Shown: in pieces, positions 1-49,000 of the stretch
Position numbering within the stretch: position 1 is the stretch's first letter
How the letters are laid out: each line of letters begins with the position of its first letter
DNA from: Nemertoderma westbladi
Lineage: Eukaryota > Animalia > Xenacoelomorpha
Assembly (NCBI GenBank): GCA_032718475.1
Contig: JAUCBJ010003333.1
Location: forward strand, 1 to 64,000
Reading direction: 5' to 3'
Length of the DNA: 64,000 nucleotides
Notes under the pieces: model-generated
Told to the model about the DNA's origin: nothing
The model's input: the letters and a program-made list of their open reading frames with translations, nothing else
The model's database searches: none
Translations under genes and position numbers: made by a program

Positions 1-194
1 AGTTTATCAATAAAGACATATAAATTTCGGCAGGTTAAACTGCTGAAGGTCTATAAAAGCGCGTACAGTTATACTGTATATACAATTAGTACTACAATTT
101 TCGATTATTTAAAATTTGATGTTTTTTTTTTCATAATTAAAAACATCAAAATTTTATAAATAATCATAAAATATTTATAATATAGCGGGAAAAG

Positions 195-2441: not shown

Positions 2442-2459
2442 ACAAACAAAGATGACACA

Positions 2460-5798: not shown

Positions 5799-5852
5799 GT
5801 TTAACTTAGTTCGGAACTTGGGTTGTCCAGCAAAGGTGTCTTCGGCTAGTTC

Positions 5853-8800: not shown

Positions 8801-9194
8801 GCTCAGCCAGCTGAGATTTCCACTGGGCAGTTCCTTGAACTTTGAGACTCACCCGCTGAAACCAAGTCTTCACGGCAACTTGCAACGACGTGTCTTGTCT
8901 TCTTTTCAAAGCCTCCTCAAAGGCCGATAAGATTAGTCTGATTCTTAGAATTCTTTCTCTAACTTGATAAAGCAGCTCTCCCTGCTCTTGAGGTCCTTGG
9001 GGTTGTCGAAACAGTTGTTCCTCTAATCGCTCCATAGAGCTGAAGAATCCCTGTACGTATCCTGCTGCTGACCTCTTCCACACAGCTGGATCGCTGGTTT
9101 CTTTTGTCACTCCCATCCTGTGTATGTCTTCCCAGGCAGCTTCCGATAAGTCAAATGGGAGTCTGGGTCCGGGGAAGTTCCATTGACTCGACAA
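5853..9194 (-). CDS. gag: BEL/Pao Gag plus start of aspartic protease (element 1)
   Basis: Ala/Glu coiled coil; KFNGDEMKWLPF capsid-like motif; CALCDRPHRLNVC, CYNCLRQGHQRRTC and CAKCGAKHHILLH knuckles; LLDSGSTGTFI. The true start is probably ATG 9354 with a 1-bp frameshift near 9155. Confidence 0.88.
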   Translation of the reverse strand: MSSQWNFPGPRLPFDLSEAAWEDIHRMGVTKETSDPAVWKRSAAGYVQGFFSSMERLEEQLFRQPQGPQEQGELLYQVRERILRIRLILSAFEEALKRRQDTSLQVAVKTWFQRVSLKVQGTAQWKSQLAERSTHGESTDATFSQVESEVTAEKPHKRDAIDIYLSDYQRFLGDEELRRRLSGLRPNSEGAKLVLDAIDAEMLAANQAKFDERLRIARVQEEQVKKKRIEDRKTAAVAMAEVEAERKAAEAAAEAKAAAAAVEAERKAAAAVIEAERKAAAAEAERKRAVAEAERRASEETTQLELENIQENQDCINKQLTASQMQMMNRSTPKRQGYTSSDEGDTTDPEGGGNRSRLSRRRRMSHCQKLPDLPPAVRRQLTNTDLGSTEPTDQIIKIERLPTIVDEPEIIRPVLEATPSVIETPVLPEPTSKFPLHSTKLPVPSRTVHESEPVLDAERDIKNLSPVVSRSPATMLATPASAVEWVAEGRREMGLLLGQLREHRKCSSQQVREMEGTVQQFKGTVRESRLELQEVQQSIALERDKLVNTQRGIPSTPVTMCQPVRSEVFHAQGVEPTHIYTASEVETPIVNPIKGNYKPVDNDIPYRPDPNPRNLYTDNSILNNTMAQESFARQMARTEARQAVKVGEIVKFNGDEMKWLPFNEYYKDNIQNSVLSNGEKLRFLIECLEGSPKLMALKFIGHPDGLRQVWDTLNIRYGNRNNIARYLYAKLVAPRKFISSGIIEFSDEIQEICRQLDWLGKSHEYQSSMVIGAVASTLTKGGVGTRLDKKVLYMIEQQRRDPTMADLMSFLDGEVKLQLLKQSREKTPENKVSEKPVSRRKVTPVCYTDDGKSQASQEEDSGKDTERSYYVNKTPKDVSKFKSRTNDKREQVRKTPTSPKRIQVRKPEERTSVHNVTQNKVSNIKPKCALCDRPHRLNVCDEFLKKSLKDRWEVMWDKRLCYNCLRQGHQRRTCYSDARCAKCGAKHHILLHTEFERNSPSQVSETELYVQFSDVNDTDQSSEMEGFYTDEFSDENESCYLINTAVYRALTYERDTDSELPLTNSDQQPSWKAPTSNVGIREFPVVQLRVHGPKRSYIVNALLDSGSTGTFID

Positions 9195-12920: not shown

Positions 12921-13018
12921 ATGACGTCAGATGGAATCGAACTGGTGACCTCCGAGTTGGAAGTCTGACGCTCTAACCATTCCGCTAGAGGCTCAGGAAA
13001 AAGCTAAACCTGGAAATA
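12921..13018 (-). repeat. tRNA-derived SINE-like head or tRNA pseudogene, copy 1
   Basis: Minus strand has an A box (TAGCGGAATGG) and B box (GTTCGATTCC) with degenerate stems. A related copy lies at 51828-51925. Confidence 0.6.
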
Positions 13019-14647: not shown

Positions 14648-15195
14648 TGTGACGGGATCCGGGGATCCCGATTTATCCGGTGTATTCGCTTACGCGTCCC
14701 CGCCGCTAGTGAAAGAGTTTGTTATAGTTGTCGTTCCGATTGTTAATATAGATATGATGGCATAGTATAAAATGAGATAATATTGACAGATAGCACAGTT
14801 GATGTTTAGTTGAGGTTACCGGTAATAGTGATGGTAGCGGCAATGACGGTAACGAAAGTCACCGCTCTGCCCTCTAACTGTACTGGGATAACTGAATGAA
14901 ATGACACGGTTACTGGTAATATGTATTGCACAGTTGGCCGTATTGTGTCACTCAGTCGATGCCTTCCCCCCCATTGGCTAATATCCTACTTGTCACCCTT
15001 TGCCCCCCTCTGAAGTGCTTCCCTTCGCCCTTGCTATTCTCTCTCTGTCAGGGGTGTAACCCCTGGCCCCTATTGTACGTTTCTCCTTCCCACTTTATTG
15101 GGGTGACACGAGGTAGGGTAATCAACCTCGTGCTCCCAATATTGCTTAACGGCTCACTTTATGGGGTTTGGTGAGGCGGAATTGATTCGCTAACA
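14648..15195 (-). repeat. 3' LTR of element A (548 bp)
   Basis: Direct repeat of 35020-35550 with about 7 substitutions and a 17-bp indel. Adjacent to a polypurine tract (CTCCCCCCC on +). Confidence 0.95.
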
Positions 15196-16769: not shown

Positions 16770-17345
16770 CTAAACTCTAAGGTGCCCCTTCTTCCAGTAG
16801 GCACTCTCCCACTGCCCTCCTATACGTCCTCTTACTCTTCGCCACACTTTCTTTGCCAATTCCACCTGACCAGGAATTGGCTCTCCCTCTTCCGCCACCT
16901 TATTAACTATCCCGTCTCCTGGCATCAAAATGCCAGCTCCCACCTTGTTGTCTCCCGGCGGCAGAATGAAAAGAAAGTGAAAGAGCAGGCAAAAAAGAAG
17001 GTACAATAATAGTCCTATCCCTTTCCATCCTGTCTTCCTTCTCGACTTCCCCATTGTCGGTATGCGTCCCAACCGGACCGGCGTCTCTTCCGGACACTCC
17101 TCCAGACACTCCTCCGGACTATTGTCCCCCTGACACTCCACCGGACACTCCTCCGGTTTGTCCTCCGGCGCCGCCCGCTCCTCTCCATCTCCATACCGAT
17201 GCTTGCTGGGAAATCCATTCTCCTCCGCCATCTCTCCTACGTCTACCTCCCTGTCTGGCTCTACTATCTCCCATTTCTCCTCTTCGTCCTCTGCGTCTAC
17301 GGTGCCTATGGTAACATGCACCCTGATGTCTCTGTCACACTGCAT
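16770..17345 (-). CDS. Acidic, PEEC-repeat ORF with a hydrophobic segment, occupying the pol position of element A
   Basis: 191-aa ORF containing KSRRKTGWK followed by IGLLLYLLFCLLFHFLFIL. Its 3' end rejoins sequence homologous to the end of B pol (16709-16795 vs 22717-22810). Confidence 0.4.
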   Translation of the reverse strand: MQCDRDIRVHVTIGTVDAEDEEEKWEIVEPDREVDVGEMAEENGFPSKHRYGDGEERAAPEDKPEECPVECQGDNSPEECLEECPEETPVRLGRIPTMGKSRRKTGWKGIGLLLYLLFCLLFHFLFILPPGDNKVGAGILMPGDGIVNKVAEEGEPIPGQVELAKKVWRRVRGRIGGQWESAYWKKGHLRV

Positions 17346-18031
17346 GGGATCTTGGTTTTAACTGGGCCGCTAAGCGTCCATCCGAATGGCGTGAGGATCG
17401 CCGTCGGGTCCCGCTGCCTGTCTTCGCCGAAGACCGTCTGTGTTCTCTCGTGGGCCGTCGGGCAGTCCATTCCTACTATAATAGACACCTTCCTAACATC
17501 CACCTTTGGTATTGAGAAATCGATACCGTCCAGGAATCTATACTGCTCGACCTCAATGTTGGTTGGTCGCCTGGCGTTGATATTTATCGATTCTATGACG
17601 TGGATGGGGTCGATCGTCGCCCCATAGTCGCATCCCGGTGCAATCGCTGCTATCCTGCACCGCCCCGTCCTCGTCTCCAGGACCTCATCTTTACTCAAGA
17701 CGGTAGTTACCGCCATTCTATTCGGCCTCGTCTTTAGCCCTATCTCTTCGGCCACCCAGTTCTCCACCAGCGTGAAGGCTGCTCCGCTGTCGACCAGCAT
17801 TAATGTCGTTACTGATCGACCGCCCTCTCCTGATATCTTTACTGGTACTACCCCGAGTAGTACTTTTCTCTTCTTCTCCTCTTCTGTCATGCTTGTAGCC
17901 ATTGTTTGGCCTCCAGTCTCCTCCTCTCTTGCTGCTGTTTCTCTACACTCTCCGGGTCTGTGTCCTTCTACCACACATCGATGACATAGTCCATTTGCGT
18001 CTGTGTAGGCTATACGATCTTGTTTGGGCAA
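17306..18031 (-). CDS. Element A Gag zinc knuckle plus aspartic protease (distal half of gag split by element B)
   Basis: CHRCVVEGHRPGEC, LMLVDSGAAFT, IIVGMD, AILTPFGWTLSGP. Joins WQALP at ~31996 across the GGCAA TSD. Confidence 0.85.
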   Translation of the reverse strand: MPKQDRIAYTDANGLCHRCVVEGHRPGECRETAAREEETGGQTMATSMTEEEKKRKVLLGVVPVKISGEGGRSVTTLMLVDSGAAFTLVENWVAEEIGLKTRPNRMAVTTVLSKDEVLETRTGRCRIAAIAPGCDYGATIDPIHVIESININARRPTNIEVEQYRFLDGIDFSIPKVDVRKVSIIVGMDCPTAHERTQTVFGEDRQRDPTAILTPFGWTLSGPVKTKIPCSVTETSGCMLP

Positions 18032-20202
18032 TGTGACGGGATCCAAGGGGGATCCCGATTTATCCGGTTGTGGTAATTTAGTCCACGCGTCCCCGCCGTG
18101 TATAAGGATGAAATAAAGTGACTGAGTTCTGAAGTTCGGTGTATAATAGGAGGTTATAAGATATAGATATATTGTGAATGTGTACAAGGCGGGATACGGT
18201 AACTAAAGTCCCGTGATCCCCTAACTAAACTAATTGGCTGTACCCTACGCTAGCACTGCTGCACTTGAGATAACTGAATCACTGATTAATAGGTTATTGG
18301 TTATATTGCACGGTGGCCTTACTGCTACTCAATCGATGCCATTCCCCCCTCTGATTGGTTAATACCCTTGTTGGCCCTTGTTGTCAAAGTAATACGGCAT
18401 TTTAGGCTATTACTAGCGAAACCTGTTGTGTAATAAATTAGAATTACGCATTCTGGAACTCTTAGTAATTAGTACGCTGTTACATATTTGTGACTGTAAT
18501 TGATTAGTAAAATTAAGAATTAGTACGCAGCATAGCGGAGAGTAGCTAAGGTAATAATTTAGAGTACCGTAAACTATTCACGCTGAGCGGTTATTTGCAT
18601 TAGCGGGCAATAAGCTAGATCGCAGTAGTCAGTACGCAAGACACTAGTAGATTGCTGGCCTAAAGCCAGCTGCAGGCAAGTTTAGACCCAGAGCGGTATC
18701 ACCTACGAAAGACAGTGTACTGTACCAATTTTTTTGATTATTTTAAATATTCTCGCATTCACACATTCCGTTAGGGAACCGGAACCCCCAGTATTCGCGA
18801 TTAGAAAAGACGTAGGCAATAGCGTGCTTCAATAGTGGTAAAATTAGGCGTAAGAATACTCTGAGTGCAAAGCCCCTCGCACTCGTCTTAAGTAAGCTTA
18901 GGGAGCCGACTCGGGTTTATTGTTTTGGTTATTCCTGCGTGGCTCATAGATTCGAACAGTTAGCTCTCTATCGAGCGATCGGTAGAGAAAGGAACAAGCG
19001 ATTTTGCAGGAGCCGTGTAAATTTAGTAAAATATATTAGCGGACGGCAGATTAGCGCCATCCAACGGTAAGTAGCGGTTTTGTATTTAGCAGCCTTTACA
19101 ATTTAGTAATAGCACGCTCCTGATCCCCTTTACTTAATAGTAGAGCAGTCTTTATGTCTTATTGGTTAGGCGAGAACTCATTAGGTTGGCAGAGAAGTAT
19201 ACGGGTATTTGTCTGTTCAACAGTTCTGCTGTCAGTATAGGGGTCGCAGTTGTTTAACAGAGTCAATTAAACGTAAACAATGAAACGATTGCGATGGACA
19301 ACTGAGTGTCTATTCAATCCATAACGATACGATGGCAATGGAGTCTATTACAGTATTAAACACGCAACCAGCAACCAAAGTGATCAGACGATGGCGAGGT
19401 AATCTACAAAACACATAATGACAGGAAGGCGACGGAGTTTATTAAACCCAGTAAGATGGTGCATAGCGAAGCGATCGAGACGGATAACGGAGTCTATCAC
19501 AGTATTAAACCTGGAACGAAGACAGTGGAGTCTGTGTTCCAGGCCTAACTAAACCTAGAACAATGCGAACAAGGCTACCGGTACTGTAAAGTTAGACTAG
19601 ACTGGTTTGTGAGATTAACTTGCCAATACTAACTCAATACAATTTGCTTTCTTCGAATTCCTAATAATATTTTAATCTTAATAATAATTATTCAACATCA
19701 ATTATTTTATAAGTAGTATGTATAAGTAGTATTTTATAAGTACGAGTACGCATATCGGAGGAGACTATACCACATAGACCTCAGGTAAGGACGCCTGTCC
19801 CGAATATCCATAATCCCAATTTCGAAAACTCAGCCGAGAAATTTATACAAGATGCTTGGGTCAGGGCCTCGGCGCGCAAACCAACACGAGCGCTAAGGAC
19901 TGACACCGAGTCAAGCGATGAAGAGGAAGACATGAGACGTCAGAAGTCCCGAAACTATAAGGAAAGAAGGACGGACGCGGAGCAGGTAAGTTTTAATCCC
20001 CGGGAAAGGACCACGTGGAGTATTCCCGTTCACTCCACCTGTTCTCTGGGTTAGGGGTTTGGCCCCTGACCCTCTATTGTGTGCTTCCTTCCCATTCTTA
20101 TTGGGATGGCGTGAGTTGGTTAATTACCCAATCTCGCGGCTCCCAATATTGCTTATCGGCTAATAACTTTATGGGGTGTTGGCGGGATTGAATAAGCTAA
20201 CA
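18032..20202 (-). repeat. 3' LTR of element B, split by a ~1.64-kb insertion
   Basis: 18032-18375 and ~20014-20202 match the 5' LTR at 31454-31990. Confidence 0.9.
18376..20013. mobile_element. Unclassified ~1.64-kb insertion (LTR/leader-like) inside the 3' LTR of B
   Basis: Absent from the 5' LTR. Starts near TGTTGTC after a CCCTTGTTG micro-duplication; no clean TSD; weak internal GGAGTCT...CAGTATTAAAC repeats. Confidence 0.55.
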
Positions 20203-22794: not shown

Positions 22795-25700
22795 TTAAGG
22801 TGCCCCTTCTAGAAGACAGCATTTACCTACTGCTCTCCTGTAGGTTTTTCTGTCTTTCGCACCTATCTTTCCACCTATCCGCACTTCTACCGATCGGACT
22901 CTTCCGTCCTCGTCGGAGTAGGTGCCTACAACTCTCGCCAACCGCCATTGGTTGTTGATGATAGTATCATCCGTGACGATTACGAGATCTCCCTCTCTCA
23001 ACTCCCTGTTTGGCTTCCTCCACTTGCTTCGCTTATGGAGCGTGGGTAGGTATTCTTCTACCCACCTCCTCCAATACTCTGCGCTAATTGCTTTAGCTAC
23101 TTTCCAACTTTGGCGGGAGTGTATATCATCTGGGTCTATACCCCGCATATCTATGGTCGCTGGCCTTTCCATCAGGAAATGGCTAGGCGTCAACACGTCT
23201 AATGACTCAGGGTCATCATTCTCCGGGTATAGCGGTCTGCTATTAATGATCCCCTCGCACTTCGCAAGTACTGTCCGTAAGACGTCTTCAGTGACCATGT
23301 GGGTGTTCATCAGCTTCGTCATTAGACGTTTTGAACTGCCCACGAGTCTCTCGACGCATCCTAATGTATGTGGTGCATACGGCGTCCTTCTCTCCCACTT
23401 CACTTGTCGTCTTCTCATGGCCGCCCTGACTTCTTCTCCCTCCAAGATGTCTAAGGCCTCTGCCATCTCACTCTCTGCGCCCACAAAGTTGGTGCCGTTG
23501 TCGCTGTATATCACTGCGATCGTCCCACCTTTGCGGTCCCTAAACCTTTCTAAGGCGTTAATGAAGGCTGATGCGGTTGCATCTTGGGCGAGTTCTATCC
23601 CTACCGCCCGCGTATTGTTGCATACGAAGATAATACCGTAGCGTTTCTCCGTGTGTCGCATCACCTTGATCTTTATCGGCCCGAACATGTCCACACCGCA
23701 ATGTGTAAATGGCGGGTCGTGCTGTCTTACCCTACTCGCCGGTAGTGGCGCCATCTCCTGTACGGCTCGCTCCTTCTTCGCTCGTCGGCAGGTCTGACAC
23801 TGTCCCACTACCGCTTTCACCTTCTTCCTTAATTGTTTGACCCAATAGGTCCTCCTTATCTCTGTGAGGGTTCGGTTGGTGCCCCCATGCAGTATCGATT
23901 TGTGGGAGTCCCATATGATCTGGTGGACTATGGGCGATCCTGTGGGAATGATGATGGGTTTCGGTGGTACGACTATACTGTTGTTATATCCCACCCTAGA
24001 ATTCATTACTAGGATCCCATCCTCGTTGAGTTGTGGCGACAGCGTGATCAGCTCGCTATCCCGTCGGAGATGTTGTTGGTTACCGACACGTTCCACCTCG
24101 TCGCCGTAGTTCTTGCGTTGTTCATAGCGGATCACTGCCTTGGCCGCTCCTTCCAGATCTATGGTTGTCCTGGTCTTCTTGTCCTTGCCGACTCCCGCAA
24201 GGAAATTCCCAAAGGCTCTCCAGTATGCCACTAGTTTCTTGGTCTTATACCAACTAGAACTGTAGCTGAGGAGTTTATCCGTCGGGTTATCGCACAGTTC
24301 CCTTCCTGGTTGCACGTCCCTGATCTCCCTCACCATCTGGGAGTATATCTCTTCTCCCTCTGAATCTCCCTCTTCTCCTTCTGATACTACTTCCGAGCCC
24401 GGGTCCACCTTCCTCATCGGCGGCCAGGCCTCCCTATCGCTCAGAAATTGTGGCCCGTGTTGCCACAATGCTTCTTTCTTTAAGAAAGTGTGGCGTTCCA
24501 CGCCCCTCGACAGCAAGTCCGCTGGGTTCTCGTCTGTTGGGCAGTAGTGCCACCTTTCCAGTTCTGTGCTCGCCCTTATTTCGTCCACTCTATTCGCGAC
24601 GAATATCGGGTACCTCGTCTTTTCGTTGTGTAGCCAACCAAGCACTACCATGGAGTCCGTCCAGTAGTGTGTCTCCACTATGTTGGGAATTGTATCCACT
24701 AGGTAGGCTGTGGCTCTAACTCCTAGTCTCGCGGCTATCAATTCTAACTTGGGAACAGATGCTGAATCTGGCGGCGTTGACTTAGCTTTGCTAAAGGCTA
24801 GTCTGGGCTTGTGAGGCCCCTCTCGTTGTACTAAATAGAGTGCCGCTCCGTATGCCTCTAACGACGCGTCGGAGAACATATGTAGGTCCAGATTCGACAT
24901 GTTCCCGTCCGGGAAATACACTCGCGGCATGTTGTATGTTCCCATCCTCTCCAAGTCTCCTGTCCATTTGCTCCACTGTTTCTTGATGTCTTCTGGTACC
25001 TCTACGTCCCACTCATCCTTCAACTTATATACTCTCTTGAGTATCTGTTTCCCCGTGACTAGTAATGGGGATGCTAGGCCTAGGGGATCGTATATCCTTG
25101 CTATATACGATACGTAACCCCTCTTCGTATGGGTGTCTGCGCCCTCCTGGCTCAGCTGATACTTCAGTTCGTCTGTTTTTCTATCCCACACGATTCCCAA
25201 CGCCTTCTGCTGGGATTCCGTTCTCTTAATCGCCATGTCCTGTCCTTTGGCTGTTGTAGGGTTGTCCATGGTCGATTCTGGTTTCTTGTCTACTATTTCC
25301 CTGATAAATTCTTCTGAACTGGATTGGAATTTGGTCAGGTTGAAGCCGGATCCTTTCAGGATGTCGCGAACCTCGCGCCCTGTTTCCAGTATCTCCTCAA
25401 CCGTATTTCCAGACTCCATGCCGTCGTCTACGTAGAAACCGCGTCTGATCATGTCGACGGCCCTACTGCTATATCTATCTTCCTTGCCCTTTACCGTGTC
25501 TCTCACTGCCATAGTCGTCGTAAACGAGGACGACTTGGCCCCCATATTTTGTACTACCATCTTATACGCTGGTATTACCGGCGGTTCTTCTTCGCCGTTA
25601 TACCATAAGAAGCGTTGACTGTCACTATCTTCTTCTGTTACTCGGACTTGGTTGAACATGCCTTCTATGTCACACGTGAAGGCGTGTTTCCCATTCCTAA

Positions 25701-26229
25701 ATCTAAGTAGTACTTCTATGCCCGAATTGTATATGTTTGGGCCCTCTAGTAGGTAATCGTTTAAGCACTTTCCGTCGGTCTTTGCCGATGCATCGACTAC
25801 CATCCTAAGTTTACCTTTCTTTGGGTCTAAAGCTACGTGGAGTGGCAGGTAGTATGTCCTGTCCGTGTTCGGTTCGTCGACCGGTAACTCCACGGCCCAT
25901 CCTTTCTCGACGTACTTCTTAATGGTTTTGTGAATGTACTCGTTCTTCTCGGGGCTCCGTTGTAGTGTTTGTTTCAGCTTGCGGAGTCTCGTGAGCACCA
26001 TCCCTCTATTATCGGGTAGCGGTATCTTCGGTAGTTTCCACACCATTCCTATTGTATACCGCCCCTCATCACACGTCATCGTTTCCTCCACACTTTGTAA
26101 AGCCTGCTTGTCTTCTGCCGAGGTCCCGACCCCGGTCTCTTTCAGTCCCTCGAAGTCCTGTCTGAGCAGTCTTTTAAGCTGCTCCTCTGCTCCCTCGTCA
26201 CCCATTTCCTGCATTGTTCCCGCGAACAT
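22795..26229 (-). CDS. pol: BEL/Pao Pol (RT-RNase H-integrase) of element B, uninterrupted 1144 aa
   Basis: LRMVVDASA, LNDYLLEGP, CDIEGMFNQV, FYVDDG, YDPLG, FSDASL, PKLEL, NPADLLSRG, HKSILH...CQTC, VDMFGP, SDNGTNF, VERL, LTPSHFL. Confidence 0.96.
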   Translation of the reverse strand: MFAGTMQEMGDEGAEEQLKRLLRQDFEGLKETGVGTSAEDKQALQSVEETMTCDEGRYTIGMVWKLPKIPLPDNRGMVLTRLRKLKQTLQRSPEKNEYIHKTIKKYVEKGWAVELPVDEPNTDRTYYLPLHVALDPKKGKLRMVVDASAKTDGKCLNDYLLEGPNIYNSGIEVLLRFRNGKHAFTCDIEGMFNQVRVTEEDSDSQRFLWYNGEEEPPVIPAYKMVVQNMGAKSSSFTTTMAVRDTVKGKEDRYSSRAVDMIRRGFYVDDGMESGNTVEEILETGREVRDILKGSGFNLTKFQSSSEEFIREIVDKKPESTMDNPTTAKGQDMAIKRTESQQKALGIVWDRKTDELKYQLSQEGADTHTKRGYVSYIARIYDPLGLASPLLVTGKQILKRVYKLKDEWDVEVPEDIKKQWSKWTGDLERMGTYNMPRVYFPDGNMSNLDLHMFSDASLEAYGAALYLVQREGPHKPRLAFSKAKSTPPDSASVPKLELIAARLGVRATAYLVDTIPNIVETHYWTDSMVVLGWLHNEKTRYPIFVANRVDEIRASTELERWHYCPTDENPADLLSRGVERHTFLKKEALWQHGPQFLSDREAWPPMRKVDPGSEVVSEGEEGDSEGEEIYSQMVREIRDVQPGRELCDNPTDKLLSYSSSWYKTKKLVAYWRAFGNFLAGVGKDKKTRTTIDLEGAAKAVIRYEQRKNYGDEVERVGNQQHLRRDSELITLSPQLNEDGILVMNSRVGYNNSIVVPPKPIIIPTGSPIVHQIIWDSHKSILHGGTNRTLTEIRRTYWVKQLRKKVKAVVGQCQTCRRAKKERAVQEMAPLPASRVRQHDPPFTHCGVDMFGPIKIKVMRHTEKRYGIIFVCNNTRAVGIELAQDATASAFINALERFRDRKGGTIAVIYSDNGTNFVGAESEMAEALDILEGEEVRAAMRRRQVKWERRTPYAPHTLGCVERLVGSSKRLMTKLMNTHMVTEDVLRTVLAKCEGIINSRPLYPENDDPESLDVLTPSHFLMERPATIDMRGIDPDDIHSRQSWKVAKAISAEYWRRWVEEYLPTLHKRSKWRKPNRELREGDLVIVTDDTIINNQWRLARVVGTYSDEDGRVRSVEVRIGGKIGAKDRKTYRRAVGKCCLLEGAP

Positions 26230-27893
26230 GTCTCCGACATCCTGAATGGTATCTTGCTCTTAATTGGACCACTCAGCGTCCACCCGAATGGCGTTAATAT
26301 GGCCACCGGGTCGCTCTGCTTGTCTTCGCCGAAGACCGTCTGCATTCTCTCGTGGGCCGTTGGGCAGTCCATGCCTACTATGATGGATACCTTCCTAACG
26401 TCCACGTCTGGGATTGAGAAGTCAATGTTGTCCAGGAATTTGTATTGCTCGACCTCGATGTTGGTTGGCCGCCTGGCATTGATGTTAATTGACTCTATTA
26501 CTTGGATGGGGTCGATGGTTGCCCCATAATCGCATCCTGGTGCCACTGCTGCAATTGCGCACCGTCCTGTCCTCATCTCTAGGATCTCGTCTTTGCTAGA
26601 GATGGTTGTCACCGCCATCCTGCTTGGCCTCGTTCTCAACCCTATTTCTTCGGCTACCCATTCCTCAACTAATGTGAAGGCAGCTCCACTATCAAACAGC
26701 ATTAATGTTGTTACTGATCGATTGCCTTCCCCGATCACTCGTACTGGTACTACTCCAAGTAGCACTGTTCCTCTCTTCTTCGCCCCTACTGTGCACGTTG
26801 CCATCGTCTGGCCTCTCCTCTGGCCAAACTTGACCGGTTTCTCTTGGCATTCCCTGGCCTTGTGTCCACTTTTCACACATCGCGAGCAGATTTTATTGCT
26901 CGACGCGTAATCTATCTGGTCTTGCCTCGGTAGCGCCTGCCAGTACCTGCAGTTCATGGTTTTATGAAGCGCATTTGCGTGTAACTGGCATTTGCTCTTT
27001 GGGTCGTAGCCCTCTTTATATAATGCATTGCGTATCGCAGTTATATTCGTACCAAAGTCTCTACTATTCTTATTGACTGGGTTTGACCTACTGGACGTAC
27101 TGGGGTTATGTTTATTCATGTTGTTATTGTTCCCCTGTCCGTCCCTTGATGTTGTCCTATCTTCGCTTGCCTGTGGACTTGCAGTCCCCTGCGTCGCTGC
27201 ATATGGCAATGATTGTCTGAGTCTCGGTAACGCGTTCGATGTATTGTGCTCTGGTTTGGGCCTGTAATGATCTGTCTTTGGTCCCTTTCCCAGGCTATCT
27301 TCACTATAAACTGGGTCCGTTATTAGTTCAGCCTCGTAATTTAAGAAGTTTGACATTTCTTCTAAACCTGGTTCCGCACCCTTCTTGTCTCGAGTGGAGA
27401 AAGCGACCTTCCTCCATTTGTTGCGCAGCCAACTCGGTAGTGCCTGCGCTATCGTGGTGATGTTATTGGACGCGTTGAGTTCGTATGGCGCGTCTAGCGT
27501 CTTCAGCACGATCAGTGCCTTCTCGACTTTGTTAGCAAACGTCTTAATGCTAACGGGATTATCCTGTAGGCCACCCGATGTTATGCCTCTTAGCGTTTGC
27601 CTGATGATCTTGGCCGGGTGCCCGTATTCCCTATCCAGTGCCCGCCATGCTGTCGTGAAGCCGCCCTCTATTCCTTGGTATTGCCTCACGATATCGTATG
27701 CTGGGCCTCCCGTGTACACTTGTAGATACTTTAGGCACTCCGCCTGCGTCAAGTTTTTTGTTAGTATTTCGTTACTATACATTCGCCGAAACTGTAAGTA
27801 TTCTTCCGGCCTGCTCCCATCGAATTTGAACGGTTCCACGGGTGGTAATTCGATCCTCGTTTTCAACGCATCGATCAACGTGGCCATCCCCAT
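26142..27893 (-). CDS. gag: BEL/Pao Gag core plus protease of element B
   Basis: ELPPVEPFKFDG capsid-like motif; CQLHANALHKTMNC and CSRCVKSGHKAREC; LFDSGAAFT; IIVGMD. Confidence 0.92.
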   Translation of the reverse strand: MGMATLIDALKTRIELPPVEPFKFDGSRPEEYLQFRRMYSNEILTKNLTQAECLKYLQVYTGGPAYDIVRQYQGIEGGFTTAWRALDREYGHPAKIIRQTLRGITSGGLQDNPVSIKTFANKVEKALIVLKTLDAPYELNASNNITTIAQALPSWLRNKWRKVAFSTRDKKGAEPGLEEMSNFLNYEAELITDPVYSEDSLGKGPKTDHYRPKPEHNTSNALPRLRQSLPYAATQGTASPQASEDRTTSRDGQGNNNNMNKHNPSTSSRSNPVNKNSRDFGTNITAIRNALYKEGYDPKSKCQLHANALHKTMNCRYWQALPRQDQIDYASSNKICSRCVKSGHKARECQEKPVKFGQRRGQTMATCTVGAKKRGTVLLGVVPVRVIGEGNRSVTTLMLFDSGAAFTLVEEWVAEEIGLRTRPSRMAVTTISSKDEILEMRTGRCAIAAVAPGCDYGATIDPIQVIESININARRPTNIEVEQYKFLDNIDFSIPDVDVRKVSIIVGMDCPTAHERMQTVFGEDKQSDPVAILTPFGWTLSGPIKSKIPFRMSETCSREQCRKWVTREQRSSLKDCSDRTSRD

Positions 27894-30800
27894 TGCCGCG
27901 CTTCTAATGGATTCGACGGGTGCTGTATAGTTTCCCTTGTCTGGTGCGGTTCGTCCGTCCTATTTCTTGATCTTCTCTGACTCGGATATGTCATCGGGGG
28001 TAGCGGCCCCCTCCATATGTCTGTATCACACGACCTGTTTTCATCTAGGGGTCTCGTTGTTTTTGTTCCTGTCGGGGTATATTGTTGATATTGTGATGGG
28101 GGAATGTCACCCTGTCCCCCCCCCCACCGGTATGTCTGGTACTGGGGTTGATGTTAATATGTTGGGGCCCATACACCTATCCGCAATAATTCCCCCCTCC
28201 CCTGGGTATATGTTATGTCCCTGCATGCTGTAGTCATACTGCTGTGCTGGTACCGGTATAGGCCTATCAGCTTCTGGCCTACCCGCCGGTATGTATTCCG
28301 CGACTTCCGGGTTTAATCCCGTTGTCCGCGCTATCCTATCGCCTACATTGCCTCTCTCAGTATGGCCTACGGTATGTGCAGTAAGACCTACAGTATGCCC
28401 TACAGTCTGCATGTGTTGCTCGGGATCGAAGTTTATTCTTCTCGAATAATCCTCCCCGCGGCTACCGTATTCTCCATCGGTAGGTATATTCCGTCGGAAA
28501 GTTTCTCTTCGACCCCCCTCTCCACTGTTTTCATCTTCGTACCGGTACATCGCGTACCCCTCTCTCGGCGTGTAGTGCGTCTCACCGGATCGCATCCCTC
28601 CGGGGCGACGGCAATCTCCCGGAGTCCGACCCCATTGACTCTCCGTTCTCATCTCGACTACCGACGGCTCGCTGTCCGTCCTCGCTCTTCTATCGTTTGC
28701 GGCGATACTTCTACTACTGTCCTCCTCTCTTCTCCTATCAGTGGAATATTCCCGCTCACGAGATCTCTCGTCGACCTCCCGGTTAAACCCCACTGTTCTT
28801 CTTTCCTCCTCTGATCGGGCTCGACGCTCCGTCTGCCCTCCCGCGACGTCAACCTGTCCTTCTCTGCTCGATCGCACGTCGCCGGGGATACTCGCAATCC
28901 CCCTATTACTCTCCGTCGCCGGTTGTTGCGGTTTACCTTGTTCGGCCCTCGCATTGTCCGCTGACGGCTGTGGGACACTCTCTGCCCCCCCCTCTCGCCG
29001 CTAACTCTCTGTTGTGGGGTGCTCGTAGCCCCCCCCCCACTCGCTACATCTAACTTCGCTACCTCTCGCCCCGCTACTATATATCTCTCTAGTCGACACA
29101 TCAACCCTACCACAGTCGGGTCTATTCACCCCCGCCTCTCCCTCTGCTATTGCGTGGCCTTCCAGGCCCTCTGCTCCCTGTCTACCAACTACGTGGCCTA
29201 CCAGGCCCTCTGCTCCCTGTCTACTAACTACGTGGCCTACCAGGCCCTCTGCTCCCTGTCTACTAACTACGCGGCCTACCAGGCCCTCTGCTCCCTGTCT
29301 ACTAACTACGTGGCCTACCAGGCCCTCTGCTCCCTGGTTACGTAGGCCCGACGTGTCTACACTAATAGCACCCATATTGGAAACGGAAGTAATTTGCTCA
29401 TTTGAAACAAAATCATTTGTATTATTCTGCGCGACTATGTTATCTGAATTATTTTGTAAATTCGGGCTAAGATCATTATTTGAATTATTCGAATTATTCT
29501 GTGTAATTGCGTTATTTAAGTTATTTTGTAGGTCCGAATTCGAGTTATTATTTTGATTATTTGAATTATTTTGCGTAACTACATCAATATTAGGATTATT
29601 TTCTACATTAACACTGGGATTGTTCTGATTTAAATTTGAATTACTACCACCAGGCAAAGTATTTCCTGTAATAAAGGTTTGATTAGCGTTATCCCATACG
29701 GTACTATTAATATCAACAACGTCTACTGTACCATTATTATTATTATTACCCCCCCCCCCGCTCGTACGGTCGCACCAGTCTTGAGTCTGTCGTGCGGTCC
29801 CTGTCAGTGGAGTATTAACAAATACGTCTACGGCCCTTGGCTCCTCAAAAATACTCGAGCCGGCCCCTCTTTCAGACGGCGGTCCCACTTGCACGTATTC
29901 CAACTTGTGCGTCCCTCTAATTATATTTTTCGCATACTCACTCTGCCGTTCCTTTAATTCCCTATGCTCCCTTTCACCCTTTGCCACTATCCCCTCACGC
30001 TCCTGGGTGTCCTTGATGGCCGAGTCTGCGGCACTCTTAATGCTCTCCCTTCGTCTCGCCCCACGCTCCTTACGTTCCTCTTCCTTCTTCGCCTCACGCT
30101 CCTTGCGTTCCTTTTCCTTCCTCGCCTCACGTTCCTTGCGTTCCTTTTCCATTCTCGCCTCACGCTCCTCGCGTTCCTTTTCCTCTCTCGCTTCACGCTC
30201 CTCGCGTTCCTTTTCCTCTCTCGCTTCACGCTCCCTACACTCCCTTTCCTCTATCTCATCATACTCCCTTAGGCTTTTCAAAGCCCTTTCGGCCCTTTCT
30301 CCGGTTTCTCTAAGCAATACCGTTTCCCTCTCTAGCCGCACTCTTCCCTCCTCTAGCCGTTCCTTCATTTCTCTCTGACCTTGCTCTGCCATGCTGAGAC
30401 GGTATGTGGCTCCTATTTTTCTCACCGCTCTTTCTTTCGCGGAGGATGTAGCAGACTTATCGGTTACGACGGACTTCCCCCGCCTTCCCGACCTACTAGC
30501 TTTCCCCCCCTTTTCGGAGCTTTCTCCGACCGACGAGGCCGAATCCTCGGTGTTAGCCTCGGATTCGCCCTCCTCAGGTCCCTTCCAACCCACTGGTTTC
30601 ACTCCCCGGGCATCGACCAAGTATGGCCCTATGTACACTGGCGCTACGCTAGGTCCCATACTCCCACACTCCCATAGTTCAAACAGTTCGCCGGCTATCC
30701 TTTTTGCTCTCTCCCCGGCCAGTTTTCTCTGCTCAAAACGTATTAGGTAATTTAAGTGTTTATCCGACTCACCTAGTCGCTTTCTCAGTCTCACCTCGTC

Positions 30801-31338: not shown

Positions 31339-31444
31339 TCGTCTGGTGGCTGATGGCTCGGCTAGGTAGGGTGGAGTTCTTTGAGTTTAACTAGGGCGGC
31401 AGCTCGGTTTTAGTTACTGAGTTTAGCTGGGGAAGCAACACCGT

Positions 31445-31453
31445 TTTAGTTAC
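31445..31453 (-). promoter_or_regulatory. Non-tRNA primer-binding site of B (GTAACTAAA), complementary to LTR 31621-31629
   Basis: Abuts the 5' LTR end, lacks the TGG start of a tRNA PBS, and is an exact 9-nt inverted match to the LTR. Confidence 0.7.
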
Positions 31454-31990
31454 TGTGACGGGATCCAAGGGGGATCCCGATTTATCCGGTTGTGGTAATT
31501 TAGTCCACGCGTCCCCGCCGTGTATAAGGATGAAATAAAGTGACTGAGTTCTGAAGTTCGGTGTATAATAGGAGGTTATAAGATATAGATATATTGTGAA
31601 TGTGTACAAGGCGGGATACGGTAACTAAAGTCCCGTGATCCCCTAACTAAACTAATTGGCTGTACCCTACGCTAGCACTGCTGCACTTGAGATAACTGAA
31701 TCACTGATTAATAGGTTATTGGTTATATTGCACGGTGGCCTTACTGCTACTCAATCGATGCCATTCCCCCCTCTGATTGGTTAATACCCTTGTTGGCGCC
31801 CCGTGGAGTATTCCCGTTCACTCCACCTGTTCTCTGGGTTAGGGGTTTGGCCCCTGACCCTCTATTGTGTGCTTCCTTCCCATTCTTATTGGGATGGCGC
31901 GAGTTGGTTAATTACCCAATCTCGCGGCTCCCAATATTGCTTATCGGCTAATAACTTTATGGGGTGTTGGCGGGATTGAATAAGCTAACA
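31454..31990 (-). repeat. 5' LTR of element B (537 bp)
   Basis: TGTTAGC...CGTCACA on the minus strand; flanked by TSD GGCAA. Confidence 0.95.
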
Positions 31991-31995
31991 GGCAA

Positions 31996-34941
31996 CGCTT
32001 GCCAGTACTTGCAACTCCTGGTCTTATGGGTTCCGTCCCGATGTAATTGACATTGGAATCCTGGATTATAGCGTTTCCTGTATAGTCCTTCACGTATCGC
32101 GCTTAGGTTTATATGTACCGATTTAATGTTTTGGTTGTCTAGACTCGGCCTACTGGGTATATTGGGATTGTGTTTATTTTTGGTGTTATTTTCTTTCTGT
32201 CCCTGCCACGGTGTGGCCCTGCTACCAGCTAACTGTGGACTAGCAGTCCCCTGTACGGCCGCGTGTGGTAGTGACTGTCCGCATGACCTGTTCTCGTCCA
32301 AGGGGTTCGATGTTCTTGCTCCTATTGGGGTATATTGTCGATATTGTGATGGGGGAATGTCACCCTGTCCCCCCCCCCCCCCCAGCCGGTATGTTTGGTA
32401 CTGGGGTTGATGTTAATATATTGGGGCCCATACATCTATCTCCAATAACTCCCCCCTCCCCTGGATATATGTTATGTCCCTGTGTATTATAGTCATGCTG
32501 CTGTACCGATATAGGCCTACCTACCTCTCGCCTACCTACCGGTATGTACTCCGCGACTTCCGGGTTTAATCCCGTCGTTCGCGCTACCCTATCGCCTACT
32601 CTATCTCTCCCAGCATGGCCTATAATAGTATGTGCAGTAAGGCCTACAGTATGTCCTGCAGTCTGCATGTGCCCTTCCGAACCGAAGTTTATTCTTCGCG
32701 AATCTCGAATCTCCCCGCGACTACTGCACTCTCGATCGGCAGCTATATCCCGTCGGGAAGCTTCTCTTCGATCCCCTCTCCTGTTCTCGACTTTGTGTTG
32801 GTACGTCCTGTACCCCTCTCTTGGTGTGCGGTGCGTTTCTCCGGGGCGACGGCAATCTCCCGAAGTTCGACCCCACTGACTCCCCAACTCCATCTCTACT
32901 ATCGACGGTCCGCTATCCGTCCTCGCACTCGTATCGTTCGTGGCGACACTTCTTCTACTATCTTCTCCTCTTCTCTTTTTAGTGCAGTATTCCGGCTCGT
33001 GAGATCTCTCGTCGACCTCCCGGTTAAACTCCACTGTTCTTCTTCCCTCTTCTGATCGGGCTCAACGCTTCGTCTGCCCTCTCGCGACGTCAACGTGCCT
33101 CTCTGCTCGATCGCACGCCGCTGGGGATACTCGCAATCCCCCCATTACTCTCCATCGCCGGGTGTTGCGGTTTACCTAGCTCGGCCCGCGCATTATCCGC
33201 CGACGCCTGTGGGACACTCTCTGCCCCCCTCCTCTCGCTACTAATCTCTCGCGGTGGGGTGCCCGTAGCCCCCCCCCCCCCCCCCCACCCGCCACTTCTA
33301 ACTTCACTATCTCTTACTACACTTCTGCACCCTCTTGTCGGACATTCTCTACCCCCCTTCTCTCGCCACTAATCTTCCGTGATGGGGCTCCTGTAGCCCC
33401 CCCCCCCCCCCCCCCCCACTCGCCACATCTAACTTCACTATCTCTTACTTCACTTCTACACCCCTCTCTAGTCGACACACTATCTCTACTACGGCTGGGT
33501 CTATTCACCCCCGCCTCTCTCTCTACTACTGCGTGGCCTATCAGGCCCACCTCGGGTTGGCTCAACCCCGCTACCTCCTGCCTACCAACTACGTGGCCTA
33601 CCAGGCCGCCGTCGGGTTGGCTCAACCCCGCCACTTCCTGCCTACTAACTACGTGGCCTACCAGGCCGCCGTCTGCCGGGCTATACACGTCTGACACGCT
33701 CACATTAATAGCACCATTCCCAATATTATTTGTTAAATCAATTAAATCCCCTAAATCAATTAAATTATTAGAATTATTAGAATTTGAAACGGGATTATTA
33801 TTTAAATTAGAATTATTATTATTTTCAAAATTTAAATTATTATTCGAATTATTTGAATTATTCTGAATATTTGAATTAATATTATTATTTGAATTTAAAT
33901 TATTACCGGGTAAAATATTTCCTGTAATAAAGGGATTAGGGTTATCCTACTACGGTACTATTAATACCAACATTTCCTAACGTACTACTACTACCCCCCC
34001 CCCCCCCCGTACGGCTACTATGCGTACTGTACGTGTACCGCACGCTCTGTTCTCTTGCCTCACGCTCTTTGCGTTCACTCTCTTGCTCCTTCCTTCCCCT
34101 CAGTCGCCACTCTAATTCTTCCATTTTTAATTTATATGCCATGCGTTCATCTCTCTCGCACCCGTCTTTCTTTTGCGGAGGATGTAGCAGACTTATCGGT
34201 TGCGACGGACTCCCGCCGCCCCTCCGTCCTACTAACTTTCCCCCGCTTCCCGGGCTTCTCGCTGACCGACGAGACCGAATCCTCGGAGTTAACCTCGGAT
34301 TCGCCCTCGTGCGGTCCCTCCCAACCCACTAACTTAACTTCCCTGGCATCGACTAAGTATGGCCCTATGTACACTGCACCAGGCCCCATACCCCTACGTC
34401 CCATAGCCCAAACAGTTCGAAGGCAACCCCTCTCGCTCTCTCGCTGGCTAGTTCTCCCTGCCCAGAACGCACTAGGTAATCAAAGTATCTGTTCGACTCA
34501 CCTAGTCGCCTTTTCAACTTCACCTGGTCTATCTCGGCCCCTCCTCTAGCTTCTTTCAGTTGTTCCCGGGTCGCGGCGTAGGCTCGTCGGAGCCGGACGA
34601 CCCCGACGTCCTCGTCGCCGACATCTCCTCTCTCCCTCCGGGTCCGGCGTCGTACCGGCGGCTCCACCGTTGCCGTTCCGGTGGGCCGTCCGTCGCCCTC
34701 GGCCTGTGGCTGGCCGGCGACATCGGCACGTCGACCGCCACTCGTGTGTCGACTCGTCTCTCTCTCCTCCCGACTCGTCTCTCCCTTCTCGTTGTAGACG
34801 GCCCCCCTCCGTTTGGATTGCCGGATCGTCTGTAGTCGACGGATCCGGCGTCGCGGGTCGATACCGTCTCGCCGCGGCCTCGCGGATCGTTAGGTCGTCG
34901 TCCGGGGTCCGCGGCGGTGTCGTCTCTCTTTCTCGACTCAT
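31996..34941 (-). pseudogene. Degenerate proximal gag of element A with the capsid domain deleted
   Basis: Peptides collinear with B (TPDDDLTIREAA, YIGPYLVDAR, GLNPEVAEYIP, SLPHAAVQGTASP). DENRSC is fused directly to QSLP, skipping B ~27215-28030. Confidence 0.85.
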
Positions 34942-35010
34942 GTTATCCTGGCAGTCCTGTCTTTTCTTTAGATTGGTGGCTGGCAGTCACAGTCTTGGGC
35001 AACTTTGGGA

Positions 35011-35019
35011 TTTCGTTAC
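35011..35019 (-). promoter_or_regulatory. Non-tRNA primer-binding site of A (GTAACGAAA), complementary to LTR 35204-35212
   Basis: Abuts the 5' LTR end; exact 9-nt inverted match inside the LTR at the position homologous to B. Confidence 0.7.
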
Positions 35020-35550
35020 TGTGACGGGATCCGGGGATCCCGATTTACGCGTCCCCGCCGCTAGTGAAAAAGTTTGTTATAGTTGTCGTTCCGATTGTTA
35101 ATATAGATATGATGGCATAGTATAAAATGAGATAATATTGACAGATAGCACAGTTGATGTTTAGTTGAGGTTACCGGTAATAGTGATGGTAGCGGCAATG
35201 ACGGTAACGAAAGTCACTGCTCTGCCCTCTAACTGTACTGGGATAACTGAATGAAATGACACGGTTACCGGTAATATGTATTGCACCGTTGGCCGTATTG
35301 TGTCACTCAGTCGATGCCTTCCCCCCCATTGGCTAATATCCTACTTGTCACCCTTTGCCCCCCTCTGATGTGCTTCCCTTCGCCCTTGCTATTCTCTCTC
35401 TGTCAGGGGTGTAACCCCTGGCCCCTATTGTGCGTTTCTCCTTCCCACTTTATTGGGGTGACACGAGGTTGGGTAATCAACCTCGTGCTCCCAATATTGC
35501 TTAACGGCTCACTTTATGGGGTTTGGTGAGGCGGAATTGATTCGCTAACA
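35020..35550 (-). repeat. 5' LTR of element A (531 bp)
   Basis: Direct repeat of 14648-15195; flanked by TSD AAATT. Confidence 0.95.
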
Positions 35551-40075: not shown

Positions 40076-41159
40076 CTACTACTAGGATCGGCATGCTGCA
40101 TTGCAGCTGCATTTTTATGAATGCTGTGCCGGCTTGTCAACAAAATTGCATCGCCACAACTCCCTATCACCCATGACATTTGCTAGATCATCCGCATCTT
40201 TAAGGCCAGTGTCCTTTAAGATGCGTCTCAAGAAAGTCATGGGCTGTCCACCATGCTTATTCACTCCATGAGGCTGCCAAAGTACAAGATTATGCACTGG
40301 CTGGTCCTCACGGCGAAAGCAATGTCCTGCAAAGCGGAGGCGATTTTGTTCTAGTGTCAAGCTTGGGGGAACCAATGAGACACCTCCAATGTTATATAGT
40401 GTCTGGTTGGAGATGTGTGCATTGTACTTGACACAATGAACCCGGCGTAGCATTCTTGTGAATGTGCCATCCAGAGATTTGGTGTCTTCAGCAGTTAGAG
40501 CCTAGCATGGACTCGCGTAGAGGAGTACTGGAACTACTGCTGCTCTAAATAATCGGACCTTGAGTTTCCGATTAATTCTCGGTGACTTCCAAATCCTGGA
40601 AAGCCTATTCAAGGCTGCCCATGCCTTTCCCTTACGTATTCGAAGGTCCTCACCTGACTTCCGGATCCATGATCCCAGGTAACAGAAGTCGTCCACATGC
40701 TCAAGCATACCATCCTCTGAGCTTATGCTCATCCGATCAGAGACTTGCTGAGGACTTTCAAAGTTAACTGTCAGAATTTTGGTCTTTCTGGAGTTAATAA
40801 AAAGACCAACACTAGAAGCAGCATGTTCCAATGAGCTGAGGAGCCTTTGGGCTCCCTCTAATGATTCTGAGAGTACTCCTAAGTCATCAGCAAAGTCCAC
40901 CAGTAGGTGGAGTTATCATCACCCCATCATCATTATAATGATCTGAGGACATGCGTAGAACATAGTCAACCACAATAATGAACAAGAATGGTGCAAGTGT
41001 GTCTCCTTGGAGGACGCCCCATAACACTTCAAATGGTTCTGTGTCACCATCAACAGTAGACACAAATGTTGTCGAACCATCGTATACTGATCTGATTGCT
41101 GCAATAATTTCATCAGGAATCCCATATAATGAAAGTATGCTGAACATACGTGAGCGAGA
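40076..41159 (-). mobile_element. 5'-truncated RTE-like LINE, copy 1
   Basis: GVLQGDTLAPFLF, DFADDL, FCYLGS, RLRFAGHC; (TAG)n tail; 15-bp TSD CTTACTTTCGGACTA at 40061-40075 and 41160-41174. Confidence 0.92.
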
Positions 41160-46084: not shown

Positions 46085-49000
46085 CTGCAAATAATGAAAT
46101 AACAACACAAACTAAGCAGATGATTATAATAAATTATAATTGATTAATAATAAAATATTATTTACAATTTACAAATATTAATAGGGTATTGTTCTACTTC
46201 TAATATGGTATGTCCGGCTGTCCGGTACAATGCCAGACAACTGTAGCCTGTAGGCTGAGGTAAAAGTGGATGCTGGAGCGACACAACCGGTCCATATAAT
46301 ATAAGCAGCATGCAAGCAAGATATATAGGCCCGTGCCATAGACAGTAAAGGGGATAATGAAATAGGCCTATACTGTATATATCCATACCAACTCCCCCTT
46401 TAGGCGATTTTGTCAGTTCAAAATTGTTTACAGTGAACCCCATACAACATATTATAGTTTAAAAATAATAAATGACTACACATTATTCTAGTGTAATAAT
46501 TAATTGTTATAGTCTCCAAATCTAACAGTAGGTTTTGTTACACGAGTGCTGCGGCGTATTACACTCTTACTTTCAGTTTCCAATTCCGGTGTTGGAACTG
46601 TTTTCTGTTGGATTGGGTTCGGTGGTGTTTCGAGTTCAATGACCTCGTGGTAGCGACGGAGAAAACGTCTGTTTCGCCACCATGTACGACCTGAAGGTAG
46701 TTTAACGTGGTAGTCTCGTCGTTTTCCGGCCCCAACTATAATACCGACACGATCCCAACGTTTAGATCTGGAGTCTTGCAGGCAAACTTTTGTGCCTATT
46801 AGGAATGGTTTGAGGTCCCGCGCCGTTGAATTGTAGTGTTTGACGGCTTTCTCGCGAATAGTTTCGTGTCGTGTGTCAGCTGTCTCGGCTGACTGCTGCC
46901 ATTTCGGGTCAAATGAAGTGTGATGGGCTGGTACACGCGATCGCAGGTTGCGCCCAAAAACGATCTGGCTTGGTGAGCGACCATCCGCGTGTGGTGTGTT
47001 TCGTACCTCGAGTAAACCTTCGAGGAATTCCTCAGAATTTATGTCTGAGGTTGTCGTTTTTGCCAATATAACTTTAATGAGTTTTACGTGGCATTCCGCG
47101 TCCGCGTGCCCGTTACTGGACGGCGTACTAGGCGCCCATTCGACCCCCCAACGTTGCAGGAATTTCCTAAAGTTGGATGTGGCGAATTGAGGTCCTCCAT
47201 CGCTTCAAAGTTTGGTTGGAACGCCTAAGTCGACGAAACATTTCCGTAACAAGCTGACGACTTGTTGTGATGTTGGGTCATTACGCCATTGACCAACGAG
47301 TGGATAACCAGATAACAAATCTGTGCAAACAATGTAGTGTCGGCCGGCGAGAGAGAATAGGTCTGTCAATGCATGTTCAAAGGGTCTGGTTGGCTGTGGG
47401 TCGGCAACCAACGTCTCCTTCGGCAGGCTTGGTAGTCGTTCTTGGCACTGATGACATTGCTGAACCATTTGGATTATGTCATTGTTTATTCCCGGCCAGT
47501 AGACTGCGGACCGCGCTCTTTGTTTTGTCCGCGTCATACCCTGGTGGGCGGCATGTAGGCGTTCTAGAATTTCGGCTCGTTTCGCACTAGGTATAACCAG
47601 GCGTGGACCATATAATACCAGGCCGTTATCTACGGAGAGTTCGTTATGTATGGATTTAAATTGCTGGACGAATCCGGAGGTGTGGTTTTCAGTTGTGAAG
47701 CCGCTTAGGATTTCAGTAACTAATTGCAGATAGGCCTTATCGTTTAAGGCTACCTTCCGGATTTCCTCGATAATGGGGTCTGTTGTAGGTGGTTCTAGAA
47801 CGTTTTCAGGATCTAAGTCCCGAGTATCAGTCAATGCTATCCGTATAGCTGCTATGGTTCTTGTGACATCGTCATCTTCCTTTAATAATTCATCAGTGGT
47901 ATCGGGGTCATCCACTGGAGCTCGGCTGAGACAGTCTGCAATTTTATTGTCTTTACCTTTTTGCCACACTAATTCAAATTGATATTTCGATTGCAGCTGA
48001 GCTTTAATTTGCTGGAGTTTTGTATTATCGACTTGATCCAGGGTTTGTTTATTGAAGATTGAAAGTAAAGGCCGATGGTCAGTCATAACTTTAAAACTTT
48101 ATAATCCAGCTAAATATAGGTGGCATTTACTCATTGCATATTTTATAACAATGGCTTCCAATTCTATTGAGGCATACCGGGTTTCGGCATCCGATATAAA
48201 TCGGCTTCCACAGGCAATGAACTTCCATTTATTATTATTATTTTGCAGTAAATCGAAGCCAAATCCGTTCAATCGACTGGCGTCTACTTCTAACCATGTT
48301 TCTGCGTGCGGATCGAAGGGTACCAGGATTGGAGGTTTTAGAAGTGTGGATTTAACAGCCTCGAATGCATTATCATGCATTATTTCCCATGTAAAATGGT
48401 TGCGAGTTCATACTCGCGCAATGGAGTCGCTGCAGCACTGCCTTCCGAGGAAAAGCAACCGAGTTGGTTAACGAGTCCCATAAAACTTCTGAGTTCACTT
48501 ATGTTAGTTGGTTTGGGAAACTCGGAGATTGCCTTTACTTTGTTGGGGTCTGCCTCGATGCCGTTGTGTGAAACGATATATCCTGCGAACTTTACTCGTT
48601 CTTGAGCAAAGTTGAACTTTTCAGGATGGAGGGTGATGCGACCTACTCATCGGTTTAAGTTGGCCTTTGATGGCAAAGACGTCACTAAACTCTTCCAGAA
48701 GTTTTTGTTTTATTTTGTCTACGAGTTCAGCATCTATGTTAATAGGTGCAACCACTTGATTTTCCTTCACTAAATGGAGTGGTATGGGGAATTCGTCGTG
48801 GACGATGTTGAAGGCTTTACAAGCTGTAAAGGAAAGATAAATATCTTTAATTCCGTCACAAATATAAACCCATTCGTTGTAACGCATGTTTTCAATCTGT
48901 AGAGTTAGTTTTAAATGTCCCATACATTTTATTGGATTGCTGTTTATTGCTTCCAGTGGCTCGTCTAATTCTCTAAGTTTATTTATAGATATACCGAGGC

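Follow-up and report, generated by a model that had tools for sequence, protein, structure and literature searches.

Candidate self-priming of nested BEL/Pao retrotransposons in the genome of Nemertoderma westbladi

Introduction

Self-priming of reverse transcription has been shown for the long terminal repeat (LTR) retrotransposon Tf1, where the RNA's initial 11 bases act as primer and RNase H cuts between nucleotides 11 and 12 (available part of PMC7175516). Self-priming was also proposed for Tj1 (available part of PMC4600332) and predicted for the plant lineages Tcn1 and TAR (available part of PMC6317226). [quoted passage not shown] Here, we analyze a nested pair of BEL/Pao LTR elements, A and B, in a window of 64,000 nt from the xenacoelomorph Nemertoderma westbladi (assembly GCA_032718475.1, contig JAUCBJ010003333.1, positions 1 to 64,000). 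A first-pass annotation of the same DNA had proposed that both elements prime themselves.

The available text of a metazoan BEL/Pao survey (PMC3118150) and of the Sinbad paper (PMC554778) yielded no discussion of the PBS in a term search. The available text of PMC3601003, PMC8220671, PMC5445492, PMC7472051 and PMC11042837 does not mention self-priming of BEL elements. No paper on BEL/Pao self-priming was found in the literature searched, which covered few subscription papers. The Caenorhabditis elegans BEL element Cer7 is said to have been proposed to encode its own primer. That primer is reportedly a tRNA-like sequence in the 3' region, unlike the LTR segment of A and B.

Results

Self-comparison of the window revealed both elements on the minus strand, with ends defined by 5-bp target-site duplications (TSDs). 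Element A extends from 35550 to 14648 (TSD AATTT) with a 5' LTR of 531 bp at 35020..35550 that begins with TG and ends with CA, and element B from 31990 to 18032 (TSD TTGCC) with a 5' LTR of 537 bp at 31454..31990. Directly after the 5' LTR, A carries the PBS GTAACGAAA (35011..35019, read 35019-35011) and B the PBS GTAACTAAA (31445..31453, read 31453-31445), both on the minus strand. Neither LTR is followed by TGG, and the 18-nt PBS matching the 3' end of a host tRNA, which is part of the ICTV description rather than a phylogenetic criterion, is absent from both elements. Each PBS has an exact complement in its own LTR. This candidate 3' end of a self-primer is TTTCGTTAC at 35204..35212 (-) in A, where it forms the 5' strand of a predicted helix termed P1, and TTTAGTTAC at 31621..31629 (-) in B. 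The motifs occupy homologous LTR positions, 184 nt (A) and 167 nt (B) before the LTR end, in the common context GACTTT[C/A]GTTACCGT, and the G/T difference between the two PBS is compensated in the respective motif. Copies are also found in the 3' LTRs at 14849 (A) and 18199 (B). The first-pass annotation had described the missing TGG, the compensated complement and a pairing strand whose 3' end falls at the LTR boundary, and all three hold at LTR ends fixed by the TSDs.

In dinucleotide shuffles with the TSD-fixed LTR end, a contiguous match and a spacer of 0, 9 nt were reached in 1/1000 (A) and 4/1000 (B) cases. Relaxed shuffles allowing spacers of 0-6 nt and splicing reached 9 nt in 9/300 (A) and 12/300 (B). 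No GT-AG junction in A or B outdoes the contiguous 9 nt as a spliced primer. ARAGORN called no tRNA genes in the window, and Rfam gave no match in 11000-36000 at E<=1. Element B holds a second copy of its PBS in the leader, 36 nt downstream (31409..31417, -), and an additional copy of the motif with an 8/9 match in the LTR, 22 nt upstream (31643-31651, -). By eye, repeated PBS-like segments are present in the leaders of relatives L023 and L065 too.

Many related elements carry the same rule with other letters. A metagenome scan with a pol alignment gave 79 loci from the best 80 of 593 confirmed stretches. We analyzed 17 loci whose LTR-leader junction could be read thanks to overlapping contig ends or a second piece of LTR; the remaining loci were short, lacked the 5' end or lay outside the analyzed set. 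In 15 of these 17 relatives, the PBS is an exact 10-14-nt complement of the own LTR, with letters that differ between relatives. The match is contiguous in four and found only across a GT..AG junction in 11, with introns of 33-1064 nt. A PBS beginning with GT is shared by 14 of the 15, and the same site was the top match of a blind search in 11 of the 15. The 15 lack a tRNA PBS. The two other relatives are tRNA-type with a TGGTCC site and a self-match of 4 nt. The window provides an internal control, as a gypsy-like element at 46205-51521 (-) with LTRs of ~186 bp has a 4-nt self-match beside its canonical TGG primer site. L007 and L009 had been taken for tRNA-type by eye, which a scripted self-complement search overturned.

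The survey bears on the possibility that the pairing is a structural stem between the R region, U5 and the leader, serving packaging, translation or PBS masking, while a tRNA half or another host RNA is the real primer. P1 is embedded in long irregular stems in both folds, and copia lineages with half-tRNA primers exist (available part of PMC6317226). Such a stem would have to accommodate 15 relatives with differing PBS that all match the respective LTR exactly from their first base on, 11 of them only after splicing. As the PBS letters differ, each of them would call for a separate host RNA as primer. No comparable self-match is seen in elements with a TGG site, and we consider a structural stem with a host primer unlikely. 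For self-priming, the 11 splice-junction matches are the strongest indirect support, because a match found only across a spliced junction means that the partner segment must be RNA.

Some relatives have further peculiarities. One contig, L036, contains two forms of the LTR junction (95-165 and 6880-6945). In one, the last bases of the primer are preceded by a pyrimidine tract and CAG; the other has a contiguous 11-nt primer. The pair is suggestive of an intron lost through reverse transcription, or else of a chimeric assembly. The primer-forming introns of L030 and L044 measure only 33 and 38 nt, and by eye both loci resemble A and B in having CG behind the end of the primer and, close to the U5 partner, a CG-CGT word. 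No relatives were found among viral contigs, and the shared LTR-end pattern had 0 matches in prokaryote genome contigs.

In a quick tree, B is a long branch that groups with the self-complementary L030 and L044 (96 in the Shimodaira-Hasegawa-like approximate likelihood ratio test, SH-aLRT), whose PBS start with GTA. Several clades contain self-complementary elements, and both tRNA-type rows retained in the tree fall into one subclade shared with the self-complementary L019. The unrooted tree was built without the long branches L070, L065, L059 and a further element, C, and without named reference elements. L073 is identical to L072 in the tree, and the pair was counted once. A first tree, in which B joined another long branch, was discarded. 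These trees neither date nor count origins. The earlier proposal of independent self-priming in a BEL lineage thus gains support as to self-priming, while the view of a lone innovation against a tRNA norm does not fit the self-complementary PBS of most examined relatives, which span several clades.

The motif is predicted to lie inside the RNA. An initiator-like TTCAGTTATC at 35242..35251 (-) in A falls inside a block of 11 nt that A and B have in common and predicts +1 at 35248, with a CCAAT at -84 (35326-35332, -). In B, the same TTCAGTTATC at 31691..31700 (-) predicts +1 at 31697, with a CCAAT at -83. The motif would then occupy +37..45 in A and +69..77 in B. The spacing from CCAAT to the initiator is conserved (84/83 nt) and the spacing from the initiator to the motif is not (37/69 nt), which makes a position within the RNA more likely for the motif than one at the 5' end. 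On this promoter model, the pairing segment is predicted to be internal and not the first bases as in Tf1. A true Tf1-type arrangement would have transcription start at the motif or a few bases before it, with the first 9-16 nt of the RNA as primer. Consistent with this, both 5' LTRs have a CA dinucleotide 6-7 nt before the motif and L007 has a TATA box exactly 31 nt before the first primer base. Apart from the spacing, the absence of a consensus TATA upstream of the motif in A and B, CG in place of that CA in the 3' LTR of A, and TATA boxes 122-124 nt (L036) and 49 nt (L021) upstream of the primer speak against it. A Tf1-type start seems rather unlikely. The first-pass annotation had referred to the self-priming of Tf1/sushi elements by their own 5' RNA, and the predicted internal position differs from that model; the adjoining helix described below and the complementarity kept by relatives with differing letters favor its self-priming proposal as such.

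Folding of A from the predicted start gives P1 a pair probability of 0.92-0.99. With P1 pairing enforced, a second helix, P2, was predicted in both elements from the base right after the primer end. In A, its 5' strand (35190..35203, -; 13 predicted pairs) begins at the base after the primer end and its 3' strand (35050..35063, -) lies in a 14-nt U5 block identical in A and B. The strands of B are 31605..31620 (-; 14 predicted pairs) and 31510..31524 (-). Shuffles matched P2 in 0/60 and 0/500 cases for A, and in 0/60 and 2/500 for B. At -20.1/-19.8 kcal/mol, the cognate P2 duplexes exceed the crossed ones (-14.2/-17.0 kcal/mol) in strength. A predicted U5 hairpin, P3, follows 5 nt before the LTR end at 35026..35041 (-) in A and 31459..31479 (-) in B. 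The longest blocks identical between the A and B LTRs are the initiator, the 3' strand of P2 and P3 with the LTR end. With P1, P2 and P3 as neighbors, the expected cut site would fall in a predicted helix-helix, three-way junction kept in A and B. G-U pairs make up 86/625 pairs of the inner helices and none in P1; since the search for P1 admitted Watson-Crick pairs alone, this contrast carries no weight as evidence.

The position of polyadenylation signals addresses a further alternative, namely that poly(A) cleavage happens at the motif and that the genomic RNA primes with its 3' end. The motif is present in the 3' LTR too, and A and B have no poly(A) signal elsewhere. Yet the 45 nt upstream of the primer end contain no AATAAA or ATTAAA in A, in B or in any of the 15 self-complementary relatives. 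In 8 of the 15, such a hexamer occurs downstream, 6-58 nt from the primer end, which is the side on which a model with a 5' cut needs it. Priming from a poly(A) end is very unlikely in our judgment. A 10-nt block downstream of the motif, ATATCTATAT, is identical in both LTRs (35101-35110 and 31583-31592, -) and may act as a non-canonical signal for the 3' end or as a TATA-like element.

The coding regions tie both elements to BEL/Pao. The pol of B is an open frame of 1154 aa (22795..26259, -) with reverse transcriptase (RT; YVDD), RNase H (FSDAS...NPAD) and integrase, assigned by Pfam and motifs. Pfam matches to Peptidase_A17, Integrase_H2C2 and DUF5641 are above the cut-off and rve is below it. 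The best database proteins are Pao proteins with just 30-36% identity. A gag-protease frame of B was recognized by Pfam (DUF1759, Asp_protease_2) at 26142..27959 (-); upstream of it, stops interrupt coding on the gag side. B was inserted within the gag-protease region of A, of which tblastn recovered a remnant at 17327..18031 (-) that resumes beyond the insertion at 31990-32313. No RT, RNase H or integrase core was found in A by tblastn, hence A is non-autonomous. Its gag-protease is 74% identical to that of B, and A is placed in BEL/Pao through this homology. The pair shows the TG...CA LTRs, target-site duplication and polypurine tract of BEL/Pao elements, and B the order protease, RT, RNase H and integrase with Pao-type domains. 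LTRs, polypurine tract, the gag-to-integrase order and Pao-specific Pfam domains agree with the ICTV description of Belpaoviridae, whereas its tRNA PBS is not present in A or B.

The 3' LTR of A (548 bp, TG...CA, 14648..15195, -) directly follows the polypurine tract and matches the 5' LTR in 524/531 aligned bases plus a single 17-nt gap. The 3' LTR of B (18032..20202, -) is split by a 1.6-kb insert into 18032-18375 and 20011-20202, and both pieces together differ from the 5' LTR at two positions (534/536 identical). The insert, 18376-20010 (-), starts with TGGTCCTTTCC, which resembles the tRNA-type PBS of L006, L013 and L070, and has a short microhomology at its end and no TSD. It is possibly a template switch from a tRNA-primed element.

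The window contains a third Pao-type gag-pol region at 1365-9671 (-), which is 33% identical to the pol of B and split by two stops; no flanking LTR pair was detected within 1.4 kb downstream and 5 kb upstream. At 57602-59860 (-), a 752-aa stop-free frame encodes caspase, NB-ARC and APAF-1 helical domains and represents a caspase-fused Apaf-1-like gene with no evident introns in that stretch. Repeats include two perfect hairpins of 53-58 bp (53753-53873 and 63405-63518), a tandem array with >70 copies of a 41-bp unit (53908-57200) and a 1-kb direct repeat pair (40076-41101 and 60461-61527) that is 94% identical and lacks TG...CA ends. A short tRNA-like repeat occurs in two copies (12921-13018 and 51828-51925) and was not called by ARAGORN.

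Discussion

Elements A and B combine a Pao-type body with features of the self-priming Metaviridae, i.e. Tf1/Tf2 of Schizosaccharomyces pombe, Tj1, Tf1/sushi and the Tcn1 chromoviruses. Shared with this group are the lack of a tRNA site, a PBS complementary to the own RNA and a primer 3' end at the LTR boundary. By analogy, the primer of A and B would be freed by a cut in the folded RNA, and the predicted P2 and P3 would correspond to the reported U5-IR-like stem beside the PBS. The differences are that A and B belong to the Belpaoviridae with a Pao-type and not a Ty3/gypsy chromovirus pol, that their primer is predicted to be internal, ending at +45 or +77, instead of the first 11 nt, and that they match over 9 nt, with many relatives matching only after splicing. 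The best reading is that A and B are BEL/Pao members working like Tf1 and not members of Tf1/sushi. The TAR lineage (Houba, Osr-1), for which self-priming is likewise predicted from complementarity between PBS and LTR (available part of PMC6317226), consists of plant Ty1/copia elements and thus of a separate superfamily.

We suggest self-priming by an internally cut fragment of the 5' RNA as the best reading, which we consider probable. Self-priming in any form is very likely. Transcription would begin at the initiator common to both, with the motif following 37 nt downstream in A and 69 nt downstream in B. The RNA would fold so that the motif pairs with the PBS in P1, the adjoining base opens P2, and P3 directly precedes the LTR end. 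If the RNA were cut where P1 meets P2, between TAC and CG, a capped fragment of 45 nt (A) or 77 nt (B) would be freed. By analogy with Tf1, the nuclease would most likely be the RNase H of the element itself, and B keeps RT and RNase H motifs. The RT would extend the 3'-OH of the fragment from the first base of the LTR end. Element A, which has no pol, would depend on a B-like element acting in trans. For tRNA primers, it is established that plus-strand synthesis copies the primer into the PBS. Such copying of the fragment back into the PBS would keep primer and PBS exactly complementary, and could also explain why the PBS of relatives match a spliced junction.

Several observations weigh against this proposal or narrow it. 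In a blind search with free LTR ends, chance matches of 10-11 nt rank above the true site in both elements, and 9 nt are therefore meaningful only because the boundary was fixed independently. The 9-nt match is shorter than the 10-14 nt of all 15 self-complementary relatives and the 11 nt of Tf1. The pair probability of P1 in A drops to 0.02-0.09 for some shorter RNA windows, and in B competing folds keep it at only 0.10-0.40 when folding begins at the predicted start. A long duplex between R and leader suggested by the fold was rejected as marginal against shuffles (53/1000 and 41/1000; 49/1000 for the crossed pair). Neither A nor B has a canonical poly(A) hexamer downstream of the motif. A P2-like helix from the first base after the primer end was found in 6/15 relatives (~16% expected), so the adjoining-helix junction is not universal. 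The observed match length was reached in at most 5/300 shuffles for 14 of the 15 self-complementary relatives and in 35/300 for L021, values that are optimistic as for 13/17 loci the LTR end was placed by eye close to the complement; a second LTR copy fixed the other 4/17 (three self-complementary, one tRNA-type). A second tier of five loci, picked by eye from 15, comprised two self-complementary loci (L065 and L033, the latter with a PBS starting GTAAC as in A and B), one tRNA-type, one truncated and one without a match.

As A and B are related, they are not independent tests and amount to little more than one case with one compensated change. The pairing could accordingly be a chance complementarity in one ancestor followed by one chance compensating change, and a match as short as 9 nt in only two related elements, outranked in the blind search, would fit. 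The rarity of such matches in the anchored shuffles, the adjoining P2 and the same rule in 15/17 relatives make coincidence highly improbable.

Beyond A and B, much of BEL/Pao, especially in aquatic animals, might prime without tRNA through a long capped fragment cut inside the R region and in many lineages spliced first. A and B would then be intron-free forms, for which the acceptor-preceded and contiguous junction versions of L036 can be cited, and tRNA priming would be a minority state. We give this wider view about even chances. If A and B self-prime, a third LTR superfamily would use the strategy of Tf1 in another geometry, with an internal and sometimes spliced primer, and the model predicts exact RNA ends. 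Self-priming would also explain why PBS finders based on tRNAs miss many BEL/Pao elements, and BEL/Pao may be insensitive to silencing by 3' tRNA fragments.

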